Part shown: piece after piece, positions 4,485 through 62,300 of the stretch
Layout: each line of letters starts with the position of its first letter
Position numbering within the stretch: the first letter of the stretch is position 1
Origin: a phage
DNA: 64,000 bases
Sequence record: PZ445436.1
Reading direction: 5' to 3' (one strand)
Position numbers and translations under genes: made by a program
Notes under the pieces: generated by a model
The model's database searches: none
Seen by the model: only the letters and a program-made list of their open reading frames with translations
What the model was told of the DNA's origin: nothing

Positions 4485-6109
<1,625 letters not shown>

Positions 6110-9845: not shown

Positions 9846-9859
9846 TCTTTGACGATTTA

Positions 9860-9877
9860 AGGGACCTTCGGGTCCCT
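9860..9877 (+). terminator. Intrinsic terminator after gene 23
   Basis: AGGGACC-UUCG-GGUCCCU hairpin followed by T-rich tract. Confidence 0.75.
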
Positions 9878-9893
9878 TTAGTTGTTTTTATGG

Positions 9894-9901
9894 TATAAAT
9901 A
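9894..9901 (+). promoter_or_regulatory. Late promoter (TATAAATA) for gene 24
   Basis: Exact TATAAATA after the gene 23 terminator, 27 nt upstream of gene 24 ATG. Confidence 0.6.
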
Positions 9902-9928
9902 AATCATATAAACTGAAAGGAAAGCGCA

Positions 9929-11212
9929 ATGGCTAAAATCAACGAACTTCTGCGCGAATCAACCACAACGAATAGCAACTCAATCGGTCGCCCAAATCTC
10001 GTTGCTTTGACTCGCGCTACCACTAAATTAATATATTCTGACATTGTAGCAACGCAAAGAACTAATCAACCTGTTGCTGCTTTTTATGGTATCAAATACC
10101 TTAACCCAGACAATGAATTTACATTTAAAACTGGTGCTACTTACGCTGGCGAAGCTGGATATGTAGACCGAGAACAAATCACAGAATTGACAGAAGAGTC
10201 TAAATTAACTCTCAATAAAGGCGATTTATTCAAATATAATAATATCGTTTATAAAGTATTAGAAGATACTCCATTTGCTGATATTGAAGAAAGCGATTTA
10301 GAATTAGCTCTTCAGATTGCAATTGTTCTTTTAAAGGTTCGTCTATTTTCTGACGCAGCGTCAACAAGCAAATTTGAAAGCTCTGATAGCGAAATTGCGG
10401 ATGCTAGATTCCAGATTAATAAATGGCAAACCGCCGTTAAATCTCGTAAACTTAAAACTGGCATTACAGTTGAATTGGCTCAAGATTTAGAAGCAAACGG
10501 ATTCGACGCTCCTAATTTCCTGGAAGATTTGCTTGCAACTGAAATGGCAGATGAAATCAATAAAGATATTCTGCAGTCTTTGATTACGGTATCAAAACGT
10601 TATAAAGTTACAGGAATTACTGATAGTGGATTCATCGATTTGAGTTATGCATCTGCTCCTGAAGCGGGTCGTTCATTATATCGAATGGTATGTGAAATGG
10701 TTTCGCATATTCAAAAAGAATCAACTTATACAGCAACGTTCTGTGTTGCTTCAGCTCGTGCTGCTGCGATTCTTGCTGCATCAGGTTGGTTAAAACATAA
10801 ACCAGAAGATGACAAATATCTTTCACAAAATGCCTATGGGTTCTTAGCTAATGGTTTACCGCTTTATTGCGATACTAACAGCCCATTAGATTATGTAATC
10901 GTTGGTGTAGTAGAAAATATCGGTGAAAAAGAAATTGTTGGATCAATTTTCTATGCTCCGTATACAGAAGGTCTCGATTTAGATGACCCTGAACATGTAG
11001 GTGCATTTAAAGTTGTTGTTGATCCAGAAAGCTTACAACCATCTATCGGTTTATTAGTTAGATATGCTTTATCAGCAAATCCTTACACCGTAGCAAAAGA
11101 TGAAAAAGAAGCAAGAGTAATTGATGGTGGAGACATGGATAAAATGGCGGGTCGTTCAGATTTGTCTGTTTTATTAGGTGTTAAATTACCAAAAATTATT
11201 ATTGATGAATAA
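9929..11212 (+). CDS. 24: Capsid vertex protein, T4 gp24-like
   Basis: 427-aa ORF, length as T4 gp24; late promoter upstream; terminator downstream. Confidence 0.95.
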   Translation: MAKINELLRESTTTNSNSIGRPNLVALTRATTKLIYSDIVATQRTNQPVAAFYGIKYLNPDNEFTFKTGATYAGEAGYVDREQITELTEESKLTLNKGDLFKYNNIVYKVLEDTPFADIEESDLELALQIAIVLLKVRLFSDAASTSKFESSDSEIADARFQINKWQTAVKSRKLKTGITVELAQDLEANGFDAPNFLEDLLATEMADEINKDILQSLITVSKRYKVTGITDSGFIDLSYASAPEAGRSLYRMVCEMVSHIQKESTYTATFCVASARAAAILAASGWLKHKPEDDKYLSQNAYGFLANGLPLYCDTNSPLDYVIVGVVENIGEKEIVGSIFYAPYTEGLDLDDPEHVGAFKVVVDPESLQPSIGLLVRYALSANPYTVAKDEKEARVIDGGDMDKMAGRSDLSVLLGVKLPKIIIDE

Positions 11213-14955: not shown

Positions 14956-14984
14956 TAGATATATTTATTACATGGTATTTAGAC

Positions 14985-16496
14985 ATGACTGACATTAAAG
15001 TACATTTTTATGATTTTAGTCACGTGAGAATTGATTGTGAAGAAAGTACATTTCATGAACTCCGTGATTTCTTTAGCTTTGAAGCTGATGGGTATCGTTT
15101 TAATCCGAAATACAAATATGGCCACTGGGATGGACGAATCCGTCTTTTAGATTATAATCGTCTTCTTCCATTCGGCTTAGTCGGGCAAATTAAAAAGTTC
15201 TGTGATAACTTTGGCTATAAAGCCTGGATTGACCCACAAATTAACGAAAAAGAAGAATTATCAAGAAAAGATTTTGATGAATGGCTTTCTAAATTAGAAA
15301 TCTATTCAGGAAATAAAAGAATTGAACCACACTGGTATCAAAAAGATGCAGTGTTCGAAGGATTAGTTAATCGTCGTAGAATTCTTAATCTTCCAACATC
15401 CGCTGGTAAATCTTTAATTCAAGCTTTGCTTGCGCGATATTATTTGGAAAATTATGAAGGTAAAATTCTTATCATTGTTCCAACAACTGCTCTGACAACT
15501 CAGATGGCTGATGACTTCGTTGACTATCGTTTATTCAGTCATGCAATGATAAAGAAAATTGGCGGCGGAGCATCAAAAGATGATAAATATAAAAATGATG
15601 CACCAGTCGTTGTTGGTACATGGCAAACTGTAGTAAAACAACCGAAAGAATGGTTCTCACAGTTTGGAATGATGATGAATGATGAATGTCATCTTGCTAC
15701 AGGAAAAAGTATTTCATCCATCATATCAGGTTTAAATAACTGCATGTTCAAATTCGGTTTGTCTGGTTCATTACGTGATGGCAAAGCTAATATCATGCAG
15801 TATGTTGGAATGTTTGGTGAAATATTTAAGCCAGTAACGACTTCTAAATTAATGGAAGATGGACAAGTAACTGAGCTAAAAATTAATAGTATTTTTCTTC
15901 GCTATCCCGATGAGTTCACTACTAAATTAAAGGGAAAAACTTATCAAGAAGAAATAAAAATTATTACTGGGCTTAGTAAAAGAAATAAATGGATCGCTAA
16001 ATTAGCTATTAAGCTTGCGCAAAAAGATGAAAACGCTTTTGTCATGTTTAAACATGTATCGCATGGTAAAGCTATTTTCGATTTAATTAAAAATGAATAC
16101 GATAAAGTTTATTACGTATCAGGGGAAGTTGATACCGAAACCCGCAATATAATGAAAACCTTAGCTGAAAATGGTAAAGGAATAATTATAGTAGCTAGTT
16201 ATGGTGTATTTTCTACTGGTATTTCAGTTAAAAATCTGCATCACGTTGTTTTAGCGCACGGTGTTAAATCAAAAATCATTGTATTACAAACAATCGGTCG
16301 TGTATTACGTAAGCATGGTTCTAAGACAATAGCAACAGTCTGGGACCTCATAGATGATTGTGGTGTTAAGCCAAAATCTGCTAATACGAAAAAGAAATAT
16401 GTTCATTTGAACTATCTTTTAAAACACGGCATTGATCGTATTCAGCGCTACGCAGATGAAAAATTTAATTACGTAATGAAAACAGTTAATTTATAA
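14985..16496 (+). CDS. uvsW: UvsW DNA/RNA helicase (SF2)
   Basis: 503-aa ORF; Walker A PTSAGKS and DECH box; late promoter upstream. Confidence 0.95.
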   Translation: MTDIKVHFYDFSHVRIDCEESTFHELRDFFSFEADGYRFNPKYKYGHWDGRIRLLDYNRLLPFGLVGQIKKFCDNFGYKAWIDPQINEKEELSRKDFDEWLSKLEIYSGNKRIEPHWYQKDAVFEGLVNRRRILNLPTSAGKSLIQALLARYYLENYEGKILIIVPTTALTTQMADDFVDYRLFSHAMIKKIGGGASKDDKYKNDAPVVVGTWQTVVKQPKEWFSQFGMMMNDECHLATGKSISSIISGLNNCMFKFGLSGSLRDGKANIMQYVGMFGEIFKPVTTSKLMEDGQVTELKINSIFLRYPDEFTTKLKGKTYQEEIKIITGLSKRNKWIAKLAIKLAQKDENAFVMFKHVSHGKAIFDLIKNEYDKVYYVSGEVDTETRNIMKTLAENGKGIIIVASYGVFSTGISVKNLHHVVLAHGVKSKIIVLQTIGRVLRKHGSKTIATVWDLIDDCGVKPKSANTKKKYVHLNYLLKHGIDRIQRYADEKFNYVMKTVNL

Positions 16497-25347: not shown

Positions 25348-25402
25348 TTCCTCATGTTATGCCAGTAAGACTACTATAACACAACACGAGGGACTTGTAA
25401 AC
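25348..25402 (-). repeat. 55-bp promoter cassette, copy 1 (near-identical copy at 41198-41252)
   Basis: tcctcatgttatgCcagtaagactactataacacaacacgagggacttgtaaac; one mismatch to copy 2. Confidence 0.9.
25373..25402 (-). promoter_or_regulatory. T4-type early promoter upstream of the alt.-3-like ORF
   Basis: Minus strand GTTTAC-N18-TATAGT with TGT immediately before the -10 (extended -10). Confidence 0.6.
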
Positions 25403-27459
25403 TACATTTTGAACTTTTTAGACATTCCGTTGATGTTAACCAAAGAAGCCAAGATTTGAGAAACTTCGTTTTCCTCTTCTTTTGATTCTTCTACAAGGAA
25501 TTGATTAAATCCAGCCATTGGACGAACTTCACCAGTTTCCATTAGATGGTCGCCATCATATACCGATTCCTCTAATTGTTCAGAAGGAGGAACGATTGTA
25601 CCTTCTATTAGATACTTGTTATAAGCAGTTTCTTTCATAAAGTACGTGCTCACTTTATTAATCTTCAGTAAAATTCCACGCGGTAGAATAACTTCAGCTT
25701 CTGATGGAAATCCTGATAAATGACCTGGAACGATAACTTTGATTCGCTCAGCTCCTTTAATTACCATACCCACGCTAGTTTCAGCATCTTCATTAGCATA
25801 TGTAGAATGACTACCCATATGCATCAAATCTTCTGCATCAACGGAACCTTCTCCTTCGCCAGAAAATACTGCGCCGGAATCATCTAGAGCCATATAGTTT
25901 TTACCGTGCTCACCGAAAATATTTGGTTTAAGCGATGTGGATACGAAGTTCTTGAAATAGAACATTTTGTTTTCAATATTATGACGCAAAGTTTTAAAGG
26001 TAACTTCTTGTCCACGGTAAAGTGTAGTTCCTGGAGGAAGAACTGAACCTTTAGCGAATGCAGAATCAAGCGTCTCAATATGTTTAATAGCTCGTTCCAT
26101 ATATTCTTCACGGGTAGAATCTGGTTTACCCAAAAGGAACGAGTTCATTTCAACATATGAATCTGCACAATAATCTTCAATTACATCAGATTCAGCTTGA
26201 GTTAATCCTTTTGGAGTTACTTCGGTGCTTGCGTATTCATATGCCTGAGCGGCAGATTCATTAATCAATTTATAAATGCCATTCATTACAAATTGAATAA
26301 TAGCTGTCTTTTCATCTGGCGTAGCTTTAGAACCTTTAACCAAATCATTGATAATTTTCTTAATAACATCAAAGCTATTAGAAATATTAATGTCAGCAAG
26401 ATCGCTTAAAATTTTATCAGTTTTATAATCAAAGAATTCTTTATTCTTTAAATATTCTTGAGAACCTTGATATGCTATATCGCTCTGCAACTTGATAGAT
26501 GGATCACGTAAACGTGCATGGGCTAATGCAATATGATTTCGGAAGTTTTCTAGTTCGTAATCGCTAGATTTAAAACGAGAAGCACTTCTCATACCACCAA
26601 TAGCTCCTTTGCTGAAGTTTGAACCAATCTGAATAACGCCAGAGTTCATTGGTCCTTCTGCTTTATACACCGGAACTTTAGATTCAAACTCTTGATATTT
26701 CTTAGCAGCGAAGCTATCACCCTGAAGTGAAGCATCGACAGTAGAATATTGAGCTTGTGCTGCTAATCGACGACTAATTTTAGTTTTCTGAATAACAGCT
26801 TGATCAGTGCGCTTATCATTTTCTAAAGCAATAGAAGCAGCAACAGCGACAGCTTTAGGAACAGCATTACCTGTTTTAACGTCTACATAAACATCACCAA
26901 CCTTTGATTCAACTTTTGTGAATAACTCAGTTGAAATAGGAGGTACACCTGGAATGTCTTCTAAATTGGCATTTTTACGGTAAACCATAATATATGCATA
27001 TTTCTTATCATAGTCCCAGATTTCCTTTAAAAGAACATATCGACCTGCTCCTTTAGTACGTACTAAACGGTCAGCAATAACTTGCATTTGACGAGCAGCG
27101 CCATTTGTTTTACTCTTTAGTACGCGGAATAGGCATGCGTCGATTTTATACTGTTTCATTGTTTGAAGAGCAGTATCAAAAACGGCATTAATGACGCCAA
27201 TTGGATTTCCACCCAAGTTTCTAAGCTTGACTAACGATAATTTCTCGTTGACACCTATCATTACGATATGCATCATTTTGTCGCCTGGCTTAACGTTTTT
27301 ATTCGTATCACCGCCAGAGGTGTATGTACAAAATCTAAATCCAGGAAGAACGCTTTCTTCACCGGCTTGAATAGCAAAAATTTGTGGTATTTTATGCTTA
27401 GGATTTAAGTTAACAACCGGCGCCGAAGCGCCGTCAAATAATTCTGTAATAAGTTCCAT
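25402..27459 (-). CDS. Alt-type ADP-ribosyltransferase paralog (685 aa)
   Basis: N-terminus MELITELFD shared with the upstream Alt; C-terminal ART signature YRGQ / FVSTS / EAEVILPRG (R-S-ExE); ATG 3 nt after the upstream stop with AAGGA SD. Confidence 0.85.
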   Translation of the reverse strand: MELITELFDGASAPVVNLNPKHKIPQIFAIQAGEESVLPGFRFCTYTSGGDTNKNVKPGDKMMHIVMIGVNEKLSLVKLRNLGGNPIGVINAVFDTALQTMKQYKIDACLFRVLKSKTNGAARQMQVIADRLVRTKGAGRYVLLKEIWDYDKKYAYIMVYRKNANLEDIPGVPPISTELFTKVESKVGDVYVDVKTGNAVPKAVAVAASIALENDKRTDQAVIQKTKISRRLAAQAQYSTVDASLQGDSFAAKKYQEFESKVPVYKAEGPMNSGVIQIGSNFSKGAIGGMRSASRFKSSDYELENFRNHIALAHARLRDPSIKLQSDIAYQGSQEYLKNKEFFDYKTDKILSDLADINISNSFDVIKKIINDLVKGSKATPDEKTAIIQFVMNGIYKLINESAAQAYEYASTEVTPKGLTQAESDVIEDYCADSYVEMNSFLLGKPDSTREEYMERAIKHIETLDSAFAKGSVLPPGTTLYRGQEVTFKTLRHNIENKMFYFKNFVSTSLKPNIFGEHGKNYMALDDSGAVFSGEGEGSVDAEDLMHMGSHSTYANEDAETSVGMVIKGAERIKVIVPGHLSGFPSEAEVILPRGILLKINKVSTYFMKETAYNKYLIEGTIVPPSEQLEESVYDGDHLMETGEVRPMAGFNQFLVEESKEEENEVSQILASLVNINGMSKKFKM

Positions 27460-37132: not shown

Positions 37133-37365
37133 AGTACGCCATACACCCTTTGTGCTTCAACTAATCCATCAAAATCCAATTTAAGATGCGATATTTGATC
37201 GCCATCGCCTGGATTCACAATTACTAATACTGAACGAGGAGTTTCGGTAATAACACGAACCGATGTTTCAGGAAATCGTTCAGAAACCTTATTTACTAAT
37301 TCCTGCGCAAATAGTTTAACTTTTTCTTGGAATTCTTTAACAGTAATTGGTTTTTCACTTAGCAT
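37129..37365 (-). CDS. Hypothetical protein (cd.x cluster)
   Basis: 78-aa ORF. Confidence 0.55.
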   Translation of the reverse strand: MLSEKPITVKEFQEKVKLFAQELVNKVSERFPETSVRVITETPRSVLVIVNPGDGDQISHLKLDFDGLVEAQRVYGVL

Positions 37366-37886
37366 GTTGATCCCAGCTCCTTACTTTCAACATTTTTAAC
37401 TAATTTGACAGAAACTAATTCAGCATCTTGAGTAATCATTACCGGACCTTCTTCATACTCTTCAAGATATTCTAGAGCTTTCTTTTTAGCTTCTTCCTTC
37501 GTATCAGTTTGAGCATAGATATAAAACATACAACCAGTAATACCTACTACTTTCCACTTAATTTCTTTATCAGCTTTAATTTCAAATTTACTGACAGAAT
37601 CATCTTTTTGAACTTCTTCGAAAAAAGAATATTCTAACATATAAGCAATTGAAAATAACGGGCTATCTTTATAGGATTCGCCCATTACATCAATAGCTTT
37701 ATACCAACAGTCATCAATTTCGCGTTTAATGCTAATAACATTCTTTGCAGGGTCAATTTTTACTTTAAATAAATTTTCCCCAATAAACTGGGCAATTCGT
37801 TTATTAGCCCCGCAAGTTTCATTAAAAATATCTTTATACCCAGTTTTAAAGCGATAAACCTTATCTTCTTCAAACCATTCGCTCAT
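37359..37886 (-). CDS. Hypothetical protein (cd.x cluster)
   Basis: 175-aa ORF preceded by early promoter. Confidence 0.6.
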   Translation of the reverse strand: MSEWFEEDKVYRFKTGYKDIFNETCGANKRIAQFIGENLFKVKIDPAKNVISIKREIDDCWYKAIDVMGESYKDSPLFSIAYMLEYSFFEEVQKDDSVSKFEIKADKEIKWKVVGITGCMFYIYAQTDTKEEAKKKALEYLEEYEEGPVMITQDAELVSVKLVKNVESKELGSTC

Positions 37887-38427: not shown

Positions 38428-39820
<1,393 letters not shown>

Positions 39821-39824
<4 letters not shown>

Positions 39825-41255: not shown

Positions 41256-42843
<1,588 letters not shown>

Positions 42844-42870
42844 AATAAAATGGGCCTTGCGGCCCACTCC
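42844..42870 (-). promoter_or_regulatory. denA translation initiation region with hairpin between SD and ATG
   Basis: Minus strand: nrdB stop, GGAG, hairpin TGGGCC-GCAA-GGCCCA, UUUUAUU, ATG. Confidence 0.5.
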
Positions 42871-44049
42871 TTAAAAATATTTTTTAAAACTCATCATAAC
42901 TTTATCATCAACATCATTATCAATCTGTGCAACAAGGTAAGATGACAGTTCTACTTCTTGTGGCGCGGATTGAACATTATCAGAATTAAGATATTCACGA
43001 ATCCAAGGATACGGATGTTTAACCGGAGCATCAGTAATTGGGCACGGAAGACCACACTGTTTCATACGAGATACAGTTAAGTAATCAATAAAGCTCCACA
43101 TGCTATTTGTATTTAATCCAGGAACATCGCCATCTTTAAATAAATGAACTGCCCAATCTTTTTCTTGGCGGTTAACTTCCATGAAAATATCAACTGCTTC
43201 TTGTTCACACTCTTTGGCAATTTTAACCCATTCATCACCATCCGTGCCAAGTTGAAGTTGACGAATAATATATTGTGTACCTTTAAGATGAAGCTGCTCA
43301 TCACGTGCAATGAACTTCATAATCTTGGCATTACCTTCCATGATTTCCATGTTCTTATGGAAGTTAAAGGTACATGCGAAAGATACATAAAAACGAATAG
43401 CTTCCAATGCGTTGATTACATGCAGACAAAGGTAAAGAGAACGCATTAGTTCGTATTTGCATTCTTCTACATGCATAAGGCTATTTGAATATGCGTCCAA
43501 ATCATATTCATTCTCTGAAAAACACCTAAAAATTTCTTTTGCGTTTTCCCATTCACGAGTTTTCTCAATAACATCATCATAATAACGACCAATAGATTCA
43601 GCACGTTTCATGATAGCTTTATCTAATACAATCTCATCAAATACCTTTGACGGGTCAGTATAAAGATTTCGCATAATATGAGTGTATGAACGGCTGTGAA
43701 TAGTTTCACTAAAAGTCCATGTAGCAACCCATGTATCAAGGCTTGGGTCTGAAATTAATGACATAAGTACAGCAGACGGTGCACGACCCTGAATGCTATC
43801 TAGAAGTGATTGATACTTCAGGTTATTAGTAAAAATATCTTGCTGATACTGAGGAAGCTTGTTAAATTGTGCAGCATCCATCATCAAGTTTACTTCTTCA
43901 GGACGCCAGAAAAATGACAATTGCTTTTCGGTTAAATCTTCAAAAACTTTATGGCGTTGAATATCATAACGCGCAATACCAAGACCTGAACCGAAGAACA
44001 TAGGTTCTTTTAAAACATCAACTGGATTTGTATTAAAAACTGTGCTCAT
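42871..44049 (-). CDS. nrdB: Ribonucleotide reductase small subunit, uninterrupted
   Basis: 392-aa contiguous ORF. Confidence 0.9.
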   Translation of the reverse strand: MSTVFNTNPVDVLKEPMFFGSGLGIARYDIQRHKVFEDLTEKQLSFFWRPEEVNLMMDAAQFNKLPQYQQDIFTNNLKYQSLLDSIQGRAPSAVLMSLISDPSLDTWVATWTFSETIHSRSYTHIMRNLYTDPSKVFDEIVLDKAIMKRAESIGRYYDDVIEKTREWENAKEIFRCFSENEYDLDAYSNSLMHVEECKYELMRSLYLCLHVINALEAIRFYVSFACTFNFHKNMEIMEGNAKIMKFIARDEQLHLKGTQYIIRQLQLGTDGDEWVKIAKECEQEAVDIFMEVNRQEKDWAVHLFKDGDVPGLNTNSMWSFIDYLTVSRMKQCGLPCPITDAPVKHPYPWIREYLNSDNVQSAPQEVELSSYLVAQIDNDVDDKVMMSFKKYF

Positions 44050-44100
44050 AAATTTTCCGCTTAGTTAATAGATAGTGACTCGTCCATGAGTCAAATTATA

Positions 44101-46365
44101 TCATAATTTACAGGATGAACAATCTTCAGCTTTTGGAGTTTCTATTTCATAATCATCAGTACCAGAACCGTCACGTGTATTATGATAATAGAAATTTTTT
44201 CCGCCAAAATACCAAAAATACAAAAGGTCATCAATCATTATTGACATTGGAACCTTGCCTTTAGGGAAGATTTGGGGGTCATAGTATGTATTCGCCGAAG
44301 CTGATTGACAAACCCATTTCAGCATAATAGCTACCTGCGTAAGATAAGGTTTATTACCTTTCTTAGCTAATTTCCATGTATAGTCGTAAAGGTCTATGTT
44401 ATGCTCAATATTGGGCACGACCTGATTAAAGGAGCCCTCTTTTGATTCTTTAACAGAGACTGGTCCACGTGGAGGCTCGATACCGTTTGTACTGTTAGAA
44501 ACTTGGGAAGATGACTCACATGGCATAAGTGCTGATAATGTACTATTACGGATGCCAAAGAGCTTAAGGTCTTCCCGCAGCGCCGACCAGTCACAAACGT
44601 ATTTTGGAGCTGCGATTTGGTCAATCTTTTTATTGTACCAGTCGATAGGTAATTCGCCTCGAGACCAACGAGTGTCTGAATAATATTCGCAAGGTCCTTT
44701 TTCTTTGGCGAGCTTAATGGATGCTTTAATGAGTCCATACTGTAATCTCTCAAATAGTTCATGTGTTAAATCGTTAGCATCTTCATAAGAAGCAAAGTTA
44801 CTTGCCAGCCAAGCTGCATAGTTAGTAACACCTACACCGAGGTTACGACGCTTTTTAGCTTTTTCTGCTTCAGGAACTGGATATCCTTGGTAATCCAAAA
44901 GATTATCAAGAGCACGAACTTGAACTTCTGCTAATTCATTAATTTTATCTTGGTCTTGCCAATCGAAGTTATCCAGCACAAATGCAGATAACGTGCACAA
45001 TCCAATTTCAGCATCGGGGCTATTCACATCATTTGTTGGAATAGCAATTTCACAGCACAAGTTACTCTGACGAATAGGTGCCTTTTCACGAATAAATGGA
45101 GTATAGTTATTCGTATTATCAATGAACTGTACATAAATCCTTGCTGTTCCTGAACGTTCAGTCATGAGCAATTCAAATAGTTCACGGGCTTTAATACGCT
45201 TTTTACGAATATTAGGGTCTTTTTCTGCTGCTTCGTATAATTCACGGAAACGGTCTTGGTCTTTAAAATAAGAATAATAAAGCTCTCCACCCATTTCATG
45301 TGGACTGAACAAAGTAATGTAATCGTTCTTTCCAAAACGTTCCATCATCAAATCATTCAGCTGAACACCATAATCCATATGACGAATGCGGTTTTCTTCT
45401 ACGCCTTTGTTATTTTTCAAAACGAGAAGATTTTCAACTTCCAAATGCCAAATAGGATAATAAGCAGTAGCAGCGCCGCCACGAATTCCACCCTGTGAAC
45501 ATGATTTAACTGCAGTCTGAAAATGTTTCCAAAAAGGAATAACACCGGTATGGCGTACTTCACCCATGCCAATCTTAGAACCTTCGGCACGAATCATACC
45601 AACGTTAATACCAATTCCAGCGCGTTTAGAGATATATTCAACAATTGAAGCGGAAGCCTTATTGATAGACTTTAATGAATCACCTGCCTCAATAACAACA
45701 CATGAACTAAACTGTCGAGTCGGAGTACGGCAACCAGCCATAATAGGAGTTGGCAGTGAAATCTGTCGAGTAGATACCGCTTCATAAAAACGGATAACAT
45801 GTTTTAATCTATCAACAGGTTCATCTTGATGCAATGCCATTCCAATAGTCATAAATGCAAACTGTGGAGTTTCATAAATTTGACCAGTGGTTTTATCTTT
45901 AACTAAATATTTTTCTTTTAATTGCATCGCCCCGGAATAAGTAAATTCCATATCCCGTTCGTGCTTAATTTTTGATTCTAAAAATGTAATTTCTTCTGCT
46001 GAATATTTTGACAATAATTCAGGGTCATATTTACCTTCATTTACACAGTAAGAAATATGGTCAATAAATGAACGTGGTTCATACTGCCCATAAACATGCT
46101 TACGAAGAGCAAACATTAAACAGCGTGCAGCTACGTATTGATAATCAGGCTCTTCAACTGAAATAGAATTCGCAGCAGCCTTAATTACAATGGTTTGAAT
46201 GTCATCAGTGGTCATTCCATCACGGAGATATGATTTAATATTTTCATATAATTCATAAGGATCTACTGATGTTCCCTCAGCTGCCCAAGATAAAACTTTA
46301 ATAATTTTTTGTGGGTCAAAGCTCTGAGAAACACCACTACTTTTGATAACATTAATTAATTGCAT
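44101..46365 (-). CDS. nrdA: Ribonucleotide reductase large subunit
   Basis: 754-aa ORF, length as T4 NrdA. Confidence 0.95.
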   Translation of the reverse strand: MQLINVIKSSGVSQSFDPQKIIKVLSWAAEGTSVDPYELYENIKSYLRDGMTTDDIQTIVIKAAANSISVEEPDYQYVAARCLMFALRKHVYGQYEPRSFIDHISYCVNEGKYDPELLSKYSAEEITFLESKIKHERDMEFTYSGAMQLKEKYLVKDKTTGQIYETPQFAFMTIGMALHQDEPVDRLKHVIRFYEAVSTRQISLPTPIMAGCRTPTRQFSSCVVIEAGDSLKSINKASASIVEYISKRAGIGINVGMIRAEGSKIGMGEVRHTGVIPFWKHFQTAVKSCSQGGIRGGAATAYYPIWHLEVENLLVLKNNKGVEENRIRHMDYGVQLNDLMMERFGKNDYITLFSPHEMGGELYYSYFKDQDRFRELYEAAEKDPNIRKKRIKARELFELLMTERSGTARIYVQFIDNTNNYTPFIREKAPIRQSNLCCEIAIPTNDVNSPDAEIGLCTLSAFVLDNFDWQDQDKINELAEVQVRALDNLLDYQGYPVPEAEKAKKRRNLGVGVTNYAAWLASNFASYEDANDLTHELFERLQYGLIKASIKLAKEKGPCEYYSDTRWSRGELPIDWYNKKIDQIAAPKYVCDWSALREDLKLFGIRNSTLSALMPCESSSQVSNSTNGIEPPRGPVSVKESKEGSFNQVVPNIEHNIDLYDYTWKLAKKGNKPYLTQVAIMLKWVCQSASANTYYDPQIFPKGKVPMSIMIDDLLYFWYFGGKNFYYHNTRDGSGTDDYEIETPKAEDCSSCKL

Positions 46366-46682
46366 AAGTCCTCAACTTGAAAATCGTCTTTAAACAATCG
46401 GTTAACTATATGAGCTATTATATCACCATGACACGGCTTTGGTTTACATGTGCATCCTAGCCTCATTCCACGTAAAGGCTCTAAATGTGCTTTAGTTATT
46501 TCTCCGGATTTAATTCGACGTATAAAATCTTTTTTGAATAATTCAATGGCAGCCTCCCGGCTGCCAGCATCTTTACCGACGTAATTTCCCCAAAATGTAC
46601 CACGGTGAATATTAACATCAAAGTCGGATTTATATTTATTCACTACCCGGCATAGACGGCCCGGTTGGTAATAATTCTTCAT
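46356..46682 (-). CDS. Hypothetical protein (nrdA.1-like position)
   Basis: 108-aa ORF with confirmed ATG start; Cys cluster [11 protein letters not shown]. Confidence 0.6.
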
Positions 46683-46899
46683 ATTGTTTTTCCGTTAATA
46701 CAGTAATATCATAGTAACAATCGGAAGAAGTTTTAACTGTGGAAATTTTATTGTCAAAATACTCACGAGTCATTTTATGAGTATAATATTTTTTACCATA
46801 AATGGTAATAGGCTGTTCTGGTCCTGGAACTTCTAACTCGCTTGGATTAGGAAGTGTAAAAAGAACGACACCAGAAGTATCTTTAAATCGTAAAATCAT
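46636..46899 (-). CDS. Hypothetical protein (nrdA.2-like position)
   Basis: 87-aa ORF; ATGA overlap with td; 47-nt overlap with downstream ORF. Confidence 0.5.
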
Positions 46900-47756
46900 A
46901 TTGCCATTTTCCCTTTAATTGCTGGATGCGATTCATAATTTTCAAGGATAAAATCTTTCGGTTTCATGTATTCAGTTAACCAGTAAAGCTGTGTTTCGGT
47001 GTCACAATTTTCAAACTCTATAGGCCAATCAATTTTAAGTTCACACAGTTCTTTAGGCTCACGACGTAAAATTTCTTTACATTGCTCAGTATGATTCATA
47101 TAGATGTGAGTATTACCACCAGAAAATATCAAATCTCCTGGGATAAGATTACACATCTTAGCCACAATATGCGTCAAGGCAGCGTACGAGGCAATGTTGA
47201 ACGGCAAACCCAAGAAAACATCTACACTTCTTTGGTACCATTGTAAATCAAGATAACCATTACGCACATTAAACTGATAGAACATATGACAGGGCGGTAA
47301 TGCCATTTGATTGATTTCAGCTGGATTCCATGCTGAAACGATTTGACGTCGATCAGTTGGTAATTTTTTAATACGATCAATAGTTTCAACTAATTGATCC
47401 ACACCACCGAAATCACGCCATTGTTTACCGTATATAGGACCAAGTTCACCACTATGATATCCTAGGTCTTTAGCTTGGTTTTCATAATTGTCATCCCAGA
47501 TAGTTTTACCTTGAATAAGACTACCGTGAGTAAGAAGACGTAAATCATTAACATTGGTAGAACCGGAAATAAACCATAAAAGCTCAGCAATGCATGCATT
47601 CCAGGCGAGCTTCTTAGTTGTTACTGCAGGAAAACCTTTAGTTAAATCCCAGCGTAATTTAGTACCGAACAAAGCAATTGTTCCTGTGCCCGTTCGGTCA
47701 TCGGTTTCATAGCCATTTTCAAAAATGTCTTTAATTAAATCTTGGTATTGTTTCAT
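46896..47756 (-). CDS. td: Thymidylate synthase, uninterrupted
   Basis: 286-aa contiguous ORF with active-site PPCH motif. Confidence 0.95.
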
Positions 47757-47801
47757 TTAGTACCTTATATAAATTATAATACATTTTATGAAGCTGAATA
47801 A

Positions 47802-48149
47802 TCAATACGGTTTAGCATCAAATTTTCTCTCAATTTCAGGTGTGAAATATAATTCTTTACCGCGTTTGGAAAAGCGACCAATAATATGATAATTATTCTC
47901 ATCAAACGTAATATTACCAATATCCATAGCTTTCAACCAAATATCGATATTTCTATCCAGCTTTATGTCAAAATTCCAATACGGAGAACTATTACCGAAA
48001 ATACTGCAAGCGGATTCAGTGAAACAACTGCTATAAATCTTGTCTTTAGGAACTACTAATTGATAGACACCTTTAATAAACTGAGGACCTTGCCATTTTG
48101 GCTGTTTCGTGTCTTTTTCTAATAGAATAGGGTAATAATTAAAATTCAT
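47802..48149 (-). CDS. Hypothetical protein inserted between frd and td
   Basis: 115-aa ORF with ATG start, 19 nt downstream of the frd stop; no recognisable motif. Confidence 0.6.
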   Translation of the reverse strand: MNFNYYPILLEKDTKQPKWQGPQFIKGVYQLVVPKDKIYSSCFTESACSIFGNSSPYWNFDIKLDRNIDIWLKAMDIGNITFDENNYHIIGRFSKRGKELYFTPEIERKFDAKPY

Positions 48150-48168
48150 ATTTCCGCCACGCGTTATT

Positions 48169-48989
<821 letters not shown>

Positions 48990-49299: not shown

Positions 49300-49560
49300 T
49301 TATTTTTGAATTTTATCGAGCCACTTACCAAGCTTAATCATTTCTTTAGTAGCCTTTTCCATACTTCTGAACTTGACCAATAGAGGATAGGTATCGACAC
49401 CCATAACTAAACTGGTTACAAGACTGTGTTCACCCACAAGCCATAACGAATACGTTTGAATATCGAGCCCGTAATTTCTGTCTTTATGGACCCGTACACC
49501 CATCACTTCAAATTTCTCACTAGCTTTTTCTACCGCATCCAGGAAATCATCTTTAGTCAT
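49300..49560 (-). CDS. Hypothetical protein (frd.x cluster)
   Basis: Start placed at internal ATG (MTKDDFLDAV, AAGG SD, 1 nt after upstream stop), 86 aa. Confidence 0.5.
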   Translation of the reverse strand: MTKDDFLDAVEKASEKFEVMGVRVHKDRNYGLDIQTYSLWLVGEHSLVTSLVMGVDTYPLLVKFRSMEKATKEMIKLGKWLDKIQK

Positions 49561-49561
49561 A

Positions 49562-49942
49562 TTAGGCCTTAAAAGTTTTTCGCAAAAGTTCAATGATTTC
49601 ATCTACATTGTTTTCGTCAACAATGCAGTGAATTTTTGTTACGCCAGAAACCTTGTCTTTGACTTCATCTTCTTCAGAAGTCGGTTCTTTATACTCACGA
49701 AAACAATGAAATTCATCTTCGCAAATTTCTAAAAGTCTATCTTTGAGGTAAAAATGCTTTCCATTTGCGCATTCAATGTGTTTTACTGCTTTATATCCAT
49801 TAGCGACGGAAACTTCTTTAACTTCAAACCATCCGCCATTATCTCGAATAGCTTTAACGATTGATGAATTAGAACGTGGGCTATAATTAATAAATGTATC
49901 AATAAGTCTTGGAACAAGTTCATACTTTTTGCCAATATACAT
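49562..49942 (-). CDS. Hypothetical Cys/His-containing protein
   Basis: 126-aa ORF; HIECANGKH ... CEDEFHCF ... HC suggests possible metal binding. Confidence 0.55.
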   Translation of the reverse strand: MYIGKKYELVPRLIDTFINYSPRSNSSIVKAIRDNGGWFEVKEVSVANGYKAVKHIECANGKHFYLKDRLLEICEDEFHCFREYKEPTSEEDEVKDKVSGVTKIHCIVDENNVDEIIELLRKTFKA

Positions 49943-51268: not shown

Positions 51269-51342
51269 TTTTATTTCCTTTTTAATTTAATTAACAGTTG
51301 GTGCTATGACGATGTATGACCTCATAGCTGGTCAGTGAGATA
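51269..51342 (-). promoter_or_regulatory. Gene 32 5' leader / autogenous translational operator region
   Basis: Leader ends ...UUAAUUAAAUUAAAAAGGAAAUAAAAUG; in T4 gp32 binds this unstructured A/U-rich region next to a pseudoknot. Confidence 0.5.
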
Positions 51343-51367
51343 ATTATAATCTATTTATAATAAGCAA
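51343..51367 (-). promoter_or_regulatory. Possible middle-type promoter for gene 32 (imperfect MotA box)
   Basis: Minus strand TTGCTTA ... TATAAT; overlaps a TATAAATA motif. Confidence 0.3.
51352..51359 (-). promoter_or_regulatory. Possible late promoter for gene 32
   Basis: Plus TATTTATA about 85 nt upstream of the gene 32 start. Confidence 0.45.
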
Positions 51368-59363: not shown

Positions 59364-62300
59364 ATGGCTACTTTAAAACAAATACAATTTAAAAGAAGCA
59401 AAACTGCAGGTCAACGTCCTGCTGCTTCAGTATTAGCCGAAGGTGAATTGGCTATAAACTTAAAAGATAGAACAATTTTTACTAAAGATGATTCAGGAAA
59501 TATCATCGATTTAAGCATTTCTGCTGGTGGTAATATCAGTGGTAATATTACTCAAACTGGAGATTATTTACAGAACGGTACATACAATCTCAATGGAAAT
59601 CAGTTTGTTTATGCAGGAAAATATATTGAATTTTTACCTAAAACAGCTGGTAATGGTGCGTGGGCAAATCAACACCTAAATAAAGCTCCTATCTTTACAG
59701 ATTTAAGTTCAACTACTTCTATTTCAGAATATCATCCACTCATTAAGCAACGCTATAAAGATGGAACTTTTTCAGCGGGTACATTGGTTGCTGAAGGCAG
59801 TTTTAAAATTCATTTTATGAATGAATCTGGTGATTCGAAATATTGGACGTTTCGCCGTGACGGTGGATTTACTGTTGACAATGGAGGTTTAGCAGTATCA
59901 GGTGGTAGTATAACCACAACCGGAAACATCGCCGCGATCGGAAATATTACTTCGCCCCAGATTAATACTAAAAATATTATTTTAGATACAAAGGCATTCG
60001 GACAGTATGATTCACAGTCATTAGTTCAATATGTTTATCCTGGAACAGGTGAAGAAAATGGTATAAACTATCTTCGTAAAGTTCGAGCTAAATCAGGCGG
60101 AACTATTTACCATGAAATCGCTTCAGCTCAAACTGGTAAGAATGATGAAATTTCTTGGTGGACCGGAAATACACTTACTACTAAATTAATGGGTCTTCGT
60201 AATGATGGCGCAATGGTATTACGTCGTTCACTTGCTATTGGCACAATTACCACTGATGAAAATACTAACAACTACGGTTCTCCTACTCCAATGGGAGAAA
60301 GATATATTGCTTTGGGCGATGCTGCAACCGGTTTAAAATACATTAAGCAGGGTGTTTATGATTTAGTAGGTAATTGGAATTCTGTTGCTTCTATTACTCC
60401 TGACAGTTTCCGTAGTACTCGTAAAGCGTTATTTGGTCGTTCAGAAGACCAAGGTGGAACATGGATTATGCCTGGAACGAACGCTGCCTTTTTATCAGTC
60501 CAAACACAGGCTGATGAAAACACTGCTGGAGACGGTCAAACCCATATTGGATATAACTCTGGCGGTAAAATGAACCACTATTTCCGTGGTAAAGGAAAAA
60601 CTAATATTAATACTCAAGAAGGCATGGAAGTTAACCCGGGTATTTTGAAATTGGTAACTGGCTCTAATAATGTAATGTTTTATGCTGATGGCGGTATTAC
60701 ATCTGTTAAGCAGCTTTCAATATATAACGGCATATATTTAGCAGCTAATAATTCTACTGCTGGGCTAACATTCGCTCCAACTACTACAATTGATGGCACT
60801 AAGCAAATTTTGTGGGAAGGCGGTACTCGTGCTGGTCAGAATAAAAGCTATGTAACTGTTAAAGCATGGGGTAATTCATTTAACGCATCTGGCGATCGTA
60901 ATCGTGAAACGGTTTTTGAAGTAGCTGATGGACAAGGATATTATTTTTATTCACAGCGTGTGGCTCCAAGTGGCTCTGAAACTACTGGGCCTGTTGTAAC
61001 CCAGTTCAATGGACAAGTTAATGCTAGAGGAAGTATTATTACTGACGGAAGTTTTAAAGTTAATGGATTAAGCACTTTAGTCGGTAATGTTACTATGTCT
61101 AATGGTTTGTTTGTCCAAGGTGGTTCTTCTATTACTGGACAGGTAAAAATTGGTGGAACGGCTGATGCATTAAGAATTTGGAATGCTGAATACGGTGCTA
61201 TTTTCCGCCGTTCAGAAGCGTCATTACATATTATCCCTACTCCTAAAGATGCCGGTGAAAGCGGTGGAATAAGTAATCTCCGCCCACTTAGTATTAGCCT
61301 TAATAATGGTATGGTGCAAATGCGTCATTCCGTTACATTAGGTGATGATGGTGCAGGCGGTAATATGGTGACGGTTGATAATGATTCTAAAGTTATGGTA
61401 ATGACGACTAATAGCCGTATTAGTCCTAACTTCCGTATGCAAATTGGACAGTCGTCTTATATTGATGTGGAATGTACTGATGCTGTGAGACCTACTGGAG
61501 CCGGTTCTTTTGCTTCACAGAATAACGAAAACGTTCGCGCTCCGTTCTATATGAATATTGATAGAACAGATACAAGCACTTATGTTCCTATTGTGAAACA
61601 AAGATACGTTCAAAATAATAGTTGCTATTCTATTGGTACTTTAATTAATGGTGGTAACTTTAGAGTTCATTATCATGAAGGCGGTGACGGCGTTTCTACT
61701 GGTGCTATTATAAAGGATCTTGGATGGGAATTTAATAAAAACGGTGATTTTTATTCTCCTGGTAAATTAGGCGCTGGAAATATTAGAATAGGTACTGATG
61801 GTAATATTACTGGCGGAACTGGTAACTTTGCTAACTTGAACACAACTATCGAATCATTAAAAACCGATATTGTTTCAAGTTATCCTATTGGAGCTCCTAT
61901 TCCATGGCCTACAGATACTCCTCCTAATGGTTACGCTATTATGGAAGGACAGACTTTTGATAAGTCTGCATACCCAAAATTGGCTATAGCTTACCCATCT
62001 GGAGTAATTCCTGATATGCGCGGGCAAACTATCAAAGGTAAACCAAGCGGTCGTGCTGTGTTAAGTGCAGAAGCTGATGGTGTTAAGGCTCATAACCATA
62101 GTGCTTCAGCATCTAATACTGATTTAGGTACTAAAACTACATCAAGCTTTGATTATGGCACTAAGACGACAAGTAGCTTTGACTATGGCACTAAGACTAG
62201 CAATACCACAGGTAACCACTCTCATACTGTAAGCGGTACTACGAGTTCTGCTGGTGCACACCAACATGCGCGCTCAGGTCCTCAGATACAAGCCGGCATA

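Follow-up and report, generated by a model that had tools for sequence, protein, structure and literature searches.

Group I introns are distributed patchily among the td (thymidylate synthase) and nrdB (class Ia ribonucleotide reductase small subunit) genes of T-even phages, and the use of phage T2 as the standard intron-less recipient is textbook knowledge (PMC2988022, PMC2790892, PMC1865063). In T4, td is interrupted by a 1017-nt group I intron that carries the ORF for I-TevI, a GIY-YIG endonuclease, and nrdB by a 598-nt intron whose ORF, I-TevIII, belongs to the HNH class; phage RB3 has an intron of 1091 nt at the same nrdB site. The initial annotation was right to place introns in both T4 genes, but I-TevIII is not a working T4 enzyme as that annotation implied: the T4 ORF is a defective deletion remnant and the active enzyme is found in RB3 (PMC1865063, PMC2790892 and the T4 annotation). 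It is MobE that moves the T4 nrdB intron, acting in trans (PMC1865063, PMC2790892).

Published work describes what these enzymes require at their targets. I-TevI needs a 5'-CNNNG-3' motif located 23/25 nt from the insertion site, in which C1 and G5 (positions -27 and -23) are critical, and it has been described as sequence-tolerant (PMC2988022, PMC5009752), although many CNNNG variants are poor substrates (PMC5009752). I-TevIII cleaves at positions -14/-16 (PMC1865063). For MobE the informative position is nrdB codon 42, which is reported to be AAG (Lys) in T2 and in all phages without mobE, and AAG, AAA, CGG or CGA in those that carry the gene (PMC2790892).

The DNA analysed here, which we refer to as the window, is a 64,000-nt stretch of a phage genome containing the block frd-td.1-td-nrdA.2-nrdA.1-nrdA-nrdB-denA. 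T4 has orthologous td and nrdB genes in the same order. The features of the block and of its putative homing sites are as follows.

42871-44049, minus strand: nrdB, class Ia ribonucleotide reductase small subunit, a single uninterrupted ORF of 392 aa
43354-43403, minus strand: I-TevIII homing-site region (-30 to +20), from alignment with T4 and RB3
43373-43374, minus strand: empty nrdB intron insertion site, between TCGCAT and GTACC on the coding strand, from alignment with T4
43894-43926, minus strand: MobE target region in the 5' part of nrdB, codon 42 (AAG) at 43924-43926 followed by the block coding for FFWRPEE
44050-44100, minus strand: nrdA-nrdB spacer of 51 bp, from comparison with T4
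44101-46365, minus strand: nrdA, ribonucleotide reductase large subunit, uninterrupted, 754 aa
46356-46682, minus strand: nrdA.1 (DUF4326), in the order seen in T4 and T2H
46636-46899, minus strand: nrdA.2 (DUF5496), in the order seen in T4 and T2H
46896-47756, minus strand: td, thymidylate synthase, a single uninterrupted ORF of 286 aa
47197-47234, minus strand: counterpart of the 38-bp I-TevI homing site (-27 to +11), from alignment with T4, the site as defined in PMC2988022
47207-47208, minus strand: empty td intron insertion site, between GGGT and TTGC on the coding strand, from alignment with T4
47802-48149, minus strand: td.1, an ORF of 115 aa between frd and td (phrog_1928), from the ORF list

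Two features of this layout separate it from T4. The td.1 gene, which is also present in T2H, RB18 and Lutter, is lacking in T4, where frd and td overlap, and the short nrdA-nrdB spacer corresponds to some 700 bp in T4 that hold mobE and nrdB.1, both of which are missing from the window. With td and nrdB continuous, td.1 separating frd from td, and the nrdA-nrdB spacer free of mobE, the arrangement is of the T2 type. We consider it very likely that the source of the window is a Tequatrovirus (T4-like phage) of this arrangement whose intron sites are naive; homing at them may follow the route proposed below.

The continuity of td, first read from the ORF list, is borne out by a match to Pfam Thymidylat_synt (PF00303) that covers profile positions 1-266 of 266 (E=5e-96; 321 bits against a curated cut-off of 24.3) and by an alignment with the spliced T4 gene that is gapless over the 861 nt of each sequence. 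The T4 td intron (NC_000866.4) falls exactly between window positions 47208 and 47207, where the window has no extra bases. For nrdB the ORF list, the family matches (Pfam Ribonuc_red_sm, PF00268, E=1.6e-36, 126.6 bits, curated cut-off 33.6; PHROG 86, E=4.8e-156) and the T4 alignment likewise agree on one contiguous ORF, and the T4 nrdB intron falls between positions 43374 and 43373, again with no extra bases. Alignment with the T4 exons, which had been proposed as the check on the intron-less reading, thus finds both insertion sites intact.

At td, the counterpart of the 38-bp I-TevI site differs from T4 at eight positions, all synonymous, which leaves the encoded peptide unchanged. The cleavage motif reads CAAAG (47230-47234) where T4 has CAACG, with C-27 and G-23 retained at the required spacing. 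The other differences are at four spacer bases and, in the primary binding region (some 20 bp with the insertion site at its centre), at +1, +3 and +9. Over the stretch from -30 to +20, the 18 bp upstream match T4 exactly and the bases at +1, +3, +9, +12 and +18 differ. The main text of PMC5009752 gives no cleavage data for the CAAAG variant. Because the critical motif bases are kept and a near-identical allele in phage Lutter carries the intron, it is plausible that this td allele could act as a recipient of the I-TevI intron.

At nrdB, 48 of the 50 bases around the insertion site are identical to the T4 and RB3 exons; the two differences are at -5 (T to C) and -2 (G to A), the latter common to T2H and the window. 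From the cleavage positions to the insertion site, this predicted I-TevIII site matches the characterised substrate. Codon 42 of nrdB is AAG, as in phages lacking mobE, and the missing mobE bears on the route by which the T4 nrdB intron would reach this phage. The earlier suggestion that the phage is a potential recipient of both introns is a reasonable one.

Were the phage to share a host cell with a relative that carries the introns, I-TevI would be expected to bind the DNA surrounding the td insertion site and to cleave the retained CNNNG motif, 23/25 nt upstream; double-strand-break repair would then copy in the td intron together with a short tract of donor exon. An I-TevIII of the RB3 type could act likewise at nrdB and, where T4 is the donor, a MobE nick near codon 42 could bring in mobE and the nrdB intron together.

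A different reading is that drift or selection has made the homing sites resistant, in which case the phage would be immune to I-TevI, I-TevIII or MobE and not a naive recipient. The eight differences in the I-TevI site, which include the central motif base and four spacer bases, would fit such a history, as would the poor cleavage of many CNNNG variants (PMC5009752) and the changes at -5 and -2 in nrdB. However, the mismatch rate within the I-TevI site (8/38, 0.21) equals that found elsewhere in td (180/823, 0.22; Fisher p = 1), which gives no local enrichment, and the critical C-27 and G-23 are both retained. The CAAAGAAGT variant also lies upstream of the intron in phage JE01 and is therefore not confined to intron-less alleles, I-TevI tolerates sequence changes (PMC2988022, PMC5009752), and the AAG at nrdB codon 42 is typical of mobE-less phages, with AAG, AAA, CGG and CGA all found among mobE carriers (PMC2790892). 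Lutter, moreover, shows that a td allele of the window type has been invaded. We regard resistance of this kind as unlikely, and a narrower version, in which the CAAAG-AAGT motif and spacer variants and the changes at +1, +3 and +9 make td a partly resistant site, as quite improbable; if it were true, a naturally immune intron-less allele would help to maintain the intron-plus/minus polymorphism among Tequatroviruses.

The td gene of Escherichia phage vB_EcoM_Lutter (MT682714) is a near twin of the allele in the window, with exons identical at 845 of 861 positions (~98%), td.1 present and flanks 97-98% identical. Unlike the window, it holds a 1016-nt intron, 99.3% identical to that of T4, in which an ORF of 738 nt annotated as 'hypothetical protein' stands where T4 has I-TevI. 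The invasion of this allele argues, by analogy, that the I-TevI binding domain would accept the td site of the window. Of the sixteen exon differences between the two, twelve are clustered around the insertion site, from -45 to +3, as expected of a co-conversion tract. The pair is thus a clear illustration from nature of an allele before and after invasion by an intron, the co-conversion tract being about 50 bp long. For nrdB, a chimeric exon-intron probe found no intron-bearing gene with the variable exon-1 segment of the window in the collection; because its best full-length match is only ~86% identical, nrdB has no natural invaded twin.

The same tract bears on whether one or both introns were once present and then precisely lost, for instance when the phage recombined with an intron-less relative or with a cDNA of spliced mRNA. 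Both the free recombination among T-even phages and the patchy distribution of the introns would allow such a loss, but the td flanks in the window are without the donor-type polymorphisms that distinguish the invaded allele of Lutter from -45 to +3. Because these are lacking, it looks as though introns never entered the sites, or not recently, and less as though they were cleanly removed. There are no intron or endonuclease remnants anywhere in the window, and all six of the endonuclease insertions that T4 has in the corresponding 64-kb stretch are missing, which is more simply explained if they were never acquired. We therefore judge precise loss to be rather improbable.

Searches for the introns and their endonucleases agree with the alignments in confirming that the phage is intron-less at td and nrdB. 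Using blastn, the two T4 introns gave only chance matches of 12-32 nt to the window (best E=0.054), and tblastn with T4 I-TevI, I-TevIII and MobE and with RB3 MobE gave no significant match in it. The group I intron core model of Rfam (RF00028), run in E-value mode, had no match in 42400-48800 at E<=1 or across the whole 64-kb window at E<=0.1; T4's own introns, the positive control, were both detected (E=9e-8 and 2e-6). A scan at the Rfam gathering threshold, also without a match in the window, was dropped as evidence, since it missed the genuine introns of T4 too. ORFs of the window that T4 lacks (td.1 and those at 37359-37886, 39522-39824, 48747-48989 and 49300-49602) were considered as possible homing endonucleases of its own and rejected, all belonging to PHROGs of unknown function and having no nuclease domain. 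It can be seen directly that td and nrdB are intron-less alleles with unoccupied group I intron sites and that mobE is missing; nothing in this analysis contradicted the intron-less state. Because the ORFs are continuous, both genes would be expressed without splicing.

T4 NrdB is near-identical to the protein of the window outside one variable patch, a highly divergent segment at about aa 171-205, and is 4 aa shorter. That an intron, intein or other insertion lies hidden elsewhere in td or nrdB, as this length difference might suggest, has a negligible probability and is refuted by the in-frame alignments: the additional residues amount to a minor in-frame length difference within a variable segment, neither T2H NrdB as a whole nor RB3 exon 1 differs in length from its counterpart in the window, and the end-to-end alignment of both proteins with the spliced T4 proteins and the family profiles, with no RF00028 match, agrees with the initial annotation, which had deemed a hidden intron very unlikely.

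Among the described phages, T2H (AY262132) shares the arrangement in full. Its 5.4-kb frd-to-nrdB block is collinear with the window at 92.7% identity, with the same gene lengths (td 861 nt, nrdB 1179 nt, td.1 348 nt; NrdB 392 aa), no introns, no mobE and AAG at nrdB codon 42. The td genes are more distant, the window and T2H being identical at 674 of 861 nt, against 825 of 861 for T2H and spliced T4 td, and the two differ at several synonymous positions in the homing-site sequence. RB18 (MH553563) and about 140 other Tequatrovirus records are 95-97% identical to the block of the window and have the same uninterrupted denA-nrdB-nrdA-nrdA.1-nrdA.2-td-ORF-frd, point divergence of 3-4% being the sole difference; no record in the sequence collection is identical to the window across the 5.4 kb.

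The intron-less state of td and nrdB is, accordingly, an ordinary one that has already been described. It is the arrangement of T2H and the majority state among sequenced relatives, and hence not distinctive. The significance of its presence here is small and its main use lies in annotation, there being no split genes to join at td or nrdB. Junction probes against public phage records found the td junction uninterrupted in at least 569 of 961 cases and that of nrdB in 1257 of 1424; a near-complete td intron occurs in 197 records, and for the nrdB intron the count is 118.

The initial annotation described td (thymidylate synthase) and nrdB (ribonucleotide reductase small subunit) as single uninterrupted ORFs of 286 and 392 aa, and an ORF scan bears this out. 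The genes of this region are as follows:

42433-42867, denA, downstream
42871-44049, minus strand, nrdB, 392 aa
44050-44100, nrdA-nrdB spacer of 51 bp, where T4 has mobE and nrdB.1
44101-46365, nrdA, between td and nrdB
nrdA.1 and nrdA.2, also between td and nrdB
46896-47756, minus strand, td, 286 aa
47802-48149, minus strand, td.1 (115-aa ORF), between frd and td; phrog_1928, no Pfam match
48169-48750, frd, upstream

The td product covers the whole Pfam thymidylate synthase profile (positions 1-266 of 266, E=5e-96), and nrdB matches the ribonucleotide reductase small-chain family (E=1.6e-36) and PHROG 86 (E=4.8e-156). The PHROGs database also holds separate families for the halves of nrdB, phrog_10582 for the exon-1 product (aa 1-230) and phrog_8368 for the exon-2 product (aa 237-392), probably because other phages have intron-split nrdB genes that were annotated as two proteins.

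Both genes are interrupted in T4, for which the annotated region 133000-146000 was used. There td (1878 nt) and nrdB (1765 nt) are each assembled from two segments, with I-TevI lying within td, a defective I-TevIII within nrdB, and mobE and nrdB.1 between nrdA and nrdB. The blastn alignment of the window to T4 is interrupted exactly at both introns. When the splice junctions were located, T4 td exon 1 was found to end ...CTTGGGT before a 1017-nt intron and nrdB exon 1 ...TTGCGT before a 598-nt intron, whereas in the window the exon sequences adjoin directly at 47208/47207 (td) and 43374/43373 (nrdB). Spliced T4 td aligns to the window gene without gaps (861 nt each), and NrdB aligns end to end save for one variable segment whose length differs slightly. 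Alignment to the T4 exons, the check proposed initially, finds both insertion sites intact. The intron-less reading is confirmed as an observation, and the interpretation placed on it is essentially right.

When all 64 kb were searched with the T4 introns by blastn, the matches were short (12-32 nt) and at chance level throughout (best E=0.054). An Rfam scan at gathering thresholds found nothing in the window, but it was equally blank for T4 and is therefore uninformative. T4's two real group I introns (positions 5509-5749 and 10596-10826 of the T4 comparison sequence) score 35.7 and 40.3 bits against a gathering score of 50, so that a default scan misses ORF-containing phage introns. In E-value mode RF00028 recovers both (E=9e-8 and 2e-6), a positive control, yet has no match at E<=1 across window 42400-48800, nor at E<=0.1 over the full 64 kb. 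No match to I-TevI, T4 I-TevIII, or the T4 or RB3 MobE proteins was found in the window by tblastn.

The collinear counterpart of the window in T4 is 96672-160985. All six homing-endonuclease insertions of that T4 interval are absent, with 0-60 bp standing in place of each:

9857-9916, segD
14972-14990, segE
43373/43374, nrdB intron with I-TevIII
44050-44104, mobE and nrdB.1
47207/47208, td intron with I-TevI
51332-51366, segG

Tblastn with the T4 proteins found no relocated copies in the window; the phage carries none of T4's homing endonuclease genes over these 64 kb.

This arrangement is T2-type. The partial T2H record AY262132, annotated in the order frd, td.1, td, nrdA.2, nrdA.1, nrdA, nrdB, aligns collinearly to the window from end to end (92.7% identity), with equal lengths of td (861 nt), nrdB (1179 nt) and td.1 (348 nt), and RB18 has the same gene order. 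The T2H match identifies the 115-aa ORF as td.1, which matches a family of unknown function (phrog_1928); td.1 is found in T2H, RB18 and Lutter but not in T4, whose frd and td overlap. The 5.4-kb block has matches in 1035 phage records, all Tequatrovirus-like (best identity 97%). With a 120-nt probe placed symmetrically over the td junction, the match is uninterrupted in at least 569 of 961 records, the remainder including distant phages that align partly and carriers of the intron, in which one half of the probe matches; for nrdB, the corresponding probe is matched unbroken in 1257 of 1424. Of the T4 introns, that of td occurs nearly complete in 197 records, that of nrdB in 118. Although these counts are approximate, as duplicate GenBank and RefSeq entries are included, they show that the intron-less condition is the majority state; the feature is the well-known T2-type state, common to most sequenced relatives.

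I-TevI has a 38-bp target; it binds around the td insertion site, and its cut falls 23/25 nt upstream, preferably at 5'-CNNNG-3' (PMC2988022), of which C1 and G5 are critical and many central triplets make poor substrates (PMC5009752). The site reads TACCAAAGAAGTGTAGATGTTTTCTTGGGT/TTGCCGTTCAACATTGCCTC in the window and TATCAACGCTCAGTAGATGTTTTCTTGGGT/CTACCGTTTAATATTGCGTC in T4; the encoded peptide is identical, C-27 and G-23 are kept, and the eight differences between -27 and +11 are all synonymous. Their density equals that of the rest of td (0.21 against 0.22), which gives no sign of selection for resistance. The variant CAAAGAAGT is not specific to intron-less alleles, since phage JE01 has a td intron behind the same CAAAGAAGT.

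Phage Lutter, found by the td junction search through its exon-2 half alone (98%), is annotated, in order, with frd, td.1, an ORF of 552 nt named 'thymidylate synthase', one of 738 nt and a further ORF. With 1016 nt spliced out, its td is identical to that of the window at 845 of 861 positions, and its intron shares 99.3% identity with that of T4. Of the 16 positions at which the exons differ, twelve fall at -45 to +3 relative to the insertion site, and there Lutter has donor-type bases; both flanks match the window at 97-98% identity. Repair of a double-strand break initiated by I-TevI, with a short co-conversion tract, is expected to leave such a pattern. It shows natural invasion of this type of td allele, the two genes forming a natural before-and-after pair. 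The sequence and the Lutter comparison support the prediction that td would be a competent recipient.

Taken as a whole, the td allele shares 78% identity with T2H and T4 and 98% with Lutter. Over its last ~140 nt (46896-47036, minus strand) identity to T4 is only 52-73%, and the peptide at the C terminus differs from T4's ELVISGLPYKFRYLSTKEQLKYVLKLR.

The initial statement that both T4 introns carry a homing endonuclease ORF needs correcting for nrdB: T4 I-TevIII is no more than a defective remnant, and movement of the intron depends in trans on MobE (PMC1865063, PMC2790892), whose gene is missing from this phage. From -30 to +20 the nrdB site equals the T4 and RB3 exon sequence save at -5 and -2, the latter change being common to T2H and the window. 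MobE-dependent nicks are located at nrdB codon 42, which is AAG in T2 and all mobE-less phages and adjoins an FFWRPEE-coding block (PMC2790892); the window has AAG (43924-43926) and the same block. A probe joining window exon 1 to the T4 intron start found no intron-bearing twin, full matches reaching at most ~86% identity. Recipient competence at nrdB is a supported prediction from sequence conservation only.

Exon 1 of nrdB, otherwise highly conserved, contains a hypervariable patch (~43430-43540, minus strand; NrdB aa ~171-205) in which the peptides of T4, RB3 and this phage are unrelated. At gene nt 521-572, 11 of 52 nt match RB3 between flanks ~90% identical, and the exon is equally long in both.

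Elsewhere, the window has tandem full-length paralogues of alt (RNA polymerase ADP-ribosyltransferase) where T4 has a single alt and short alt.-1 and alt.-2 duplication remnants, and two ORFs of unknown-function families, with no Pfam domains, that T4 lacks at the corresponding positions:

25402-27459, minus strand, alt paralogue, 685 aa
27463-29559, minus strand, alt paralogue, 698 aa
37359-37886, minus strand, 175-aa ORF between cd.2 and cd.3, PHROG 3710
39522-39824, minus strand, 100-aa ORF between pseT and pseT.1, PHROG 2364
59977-62165, plus strand, counterpart of T4 gene 37 (distal long tail fibre)

The gene 37 counterpart is 75-78% identical to T4 between flanks of 95-98%, and is the usual host-range variable region.
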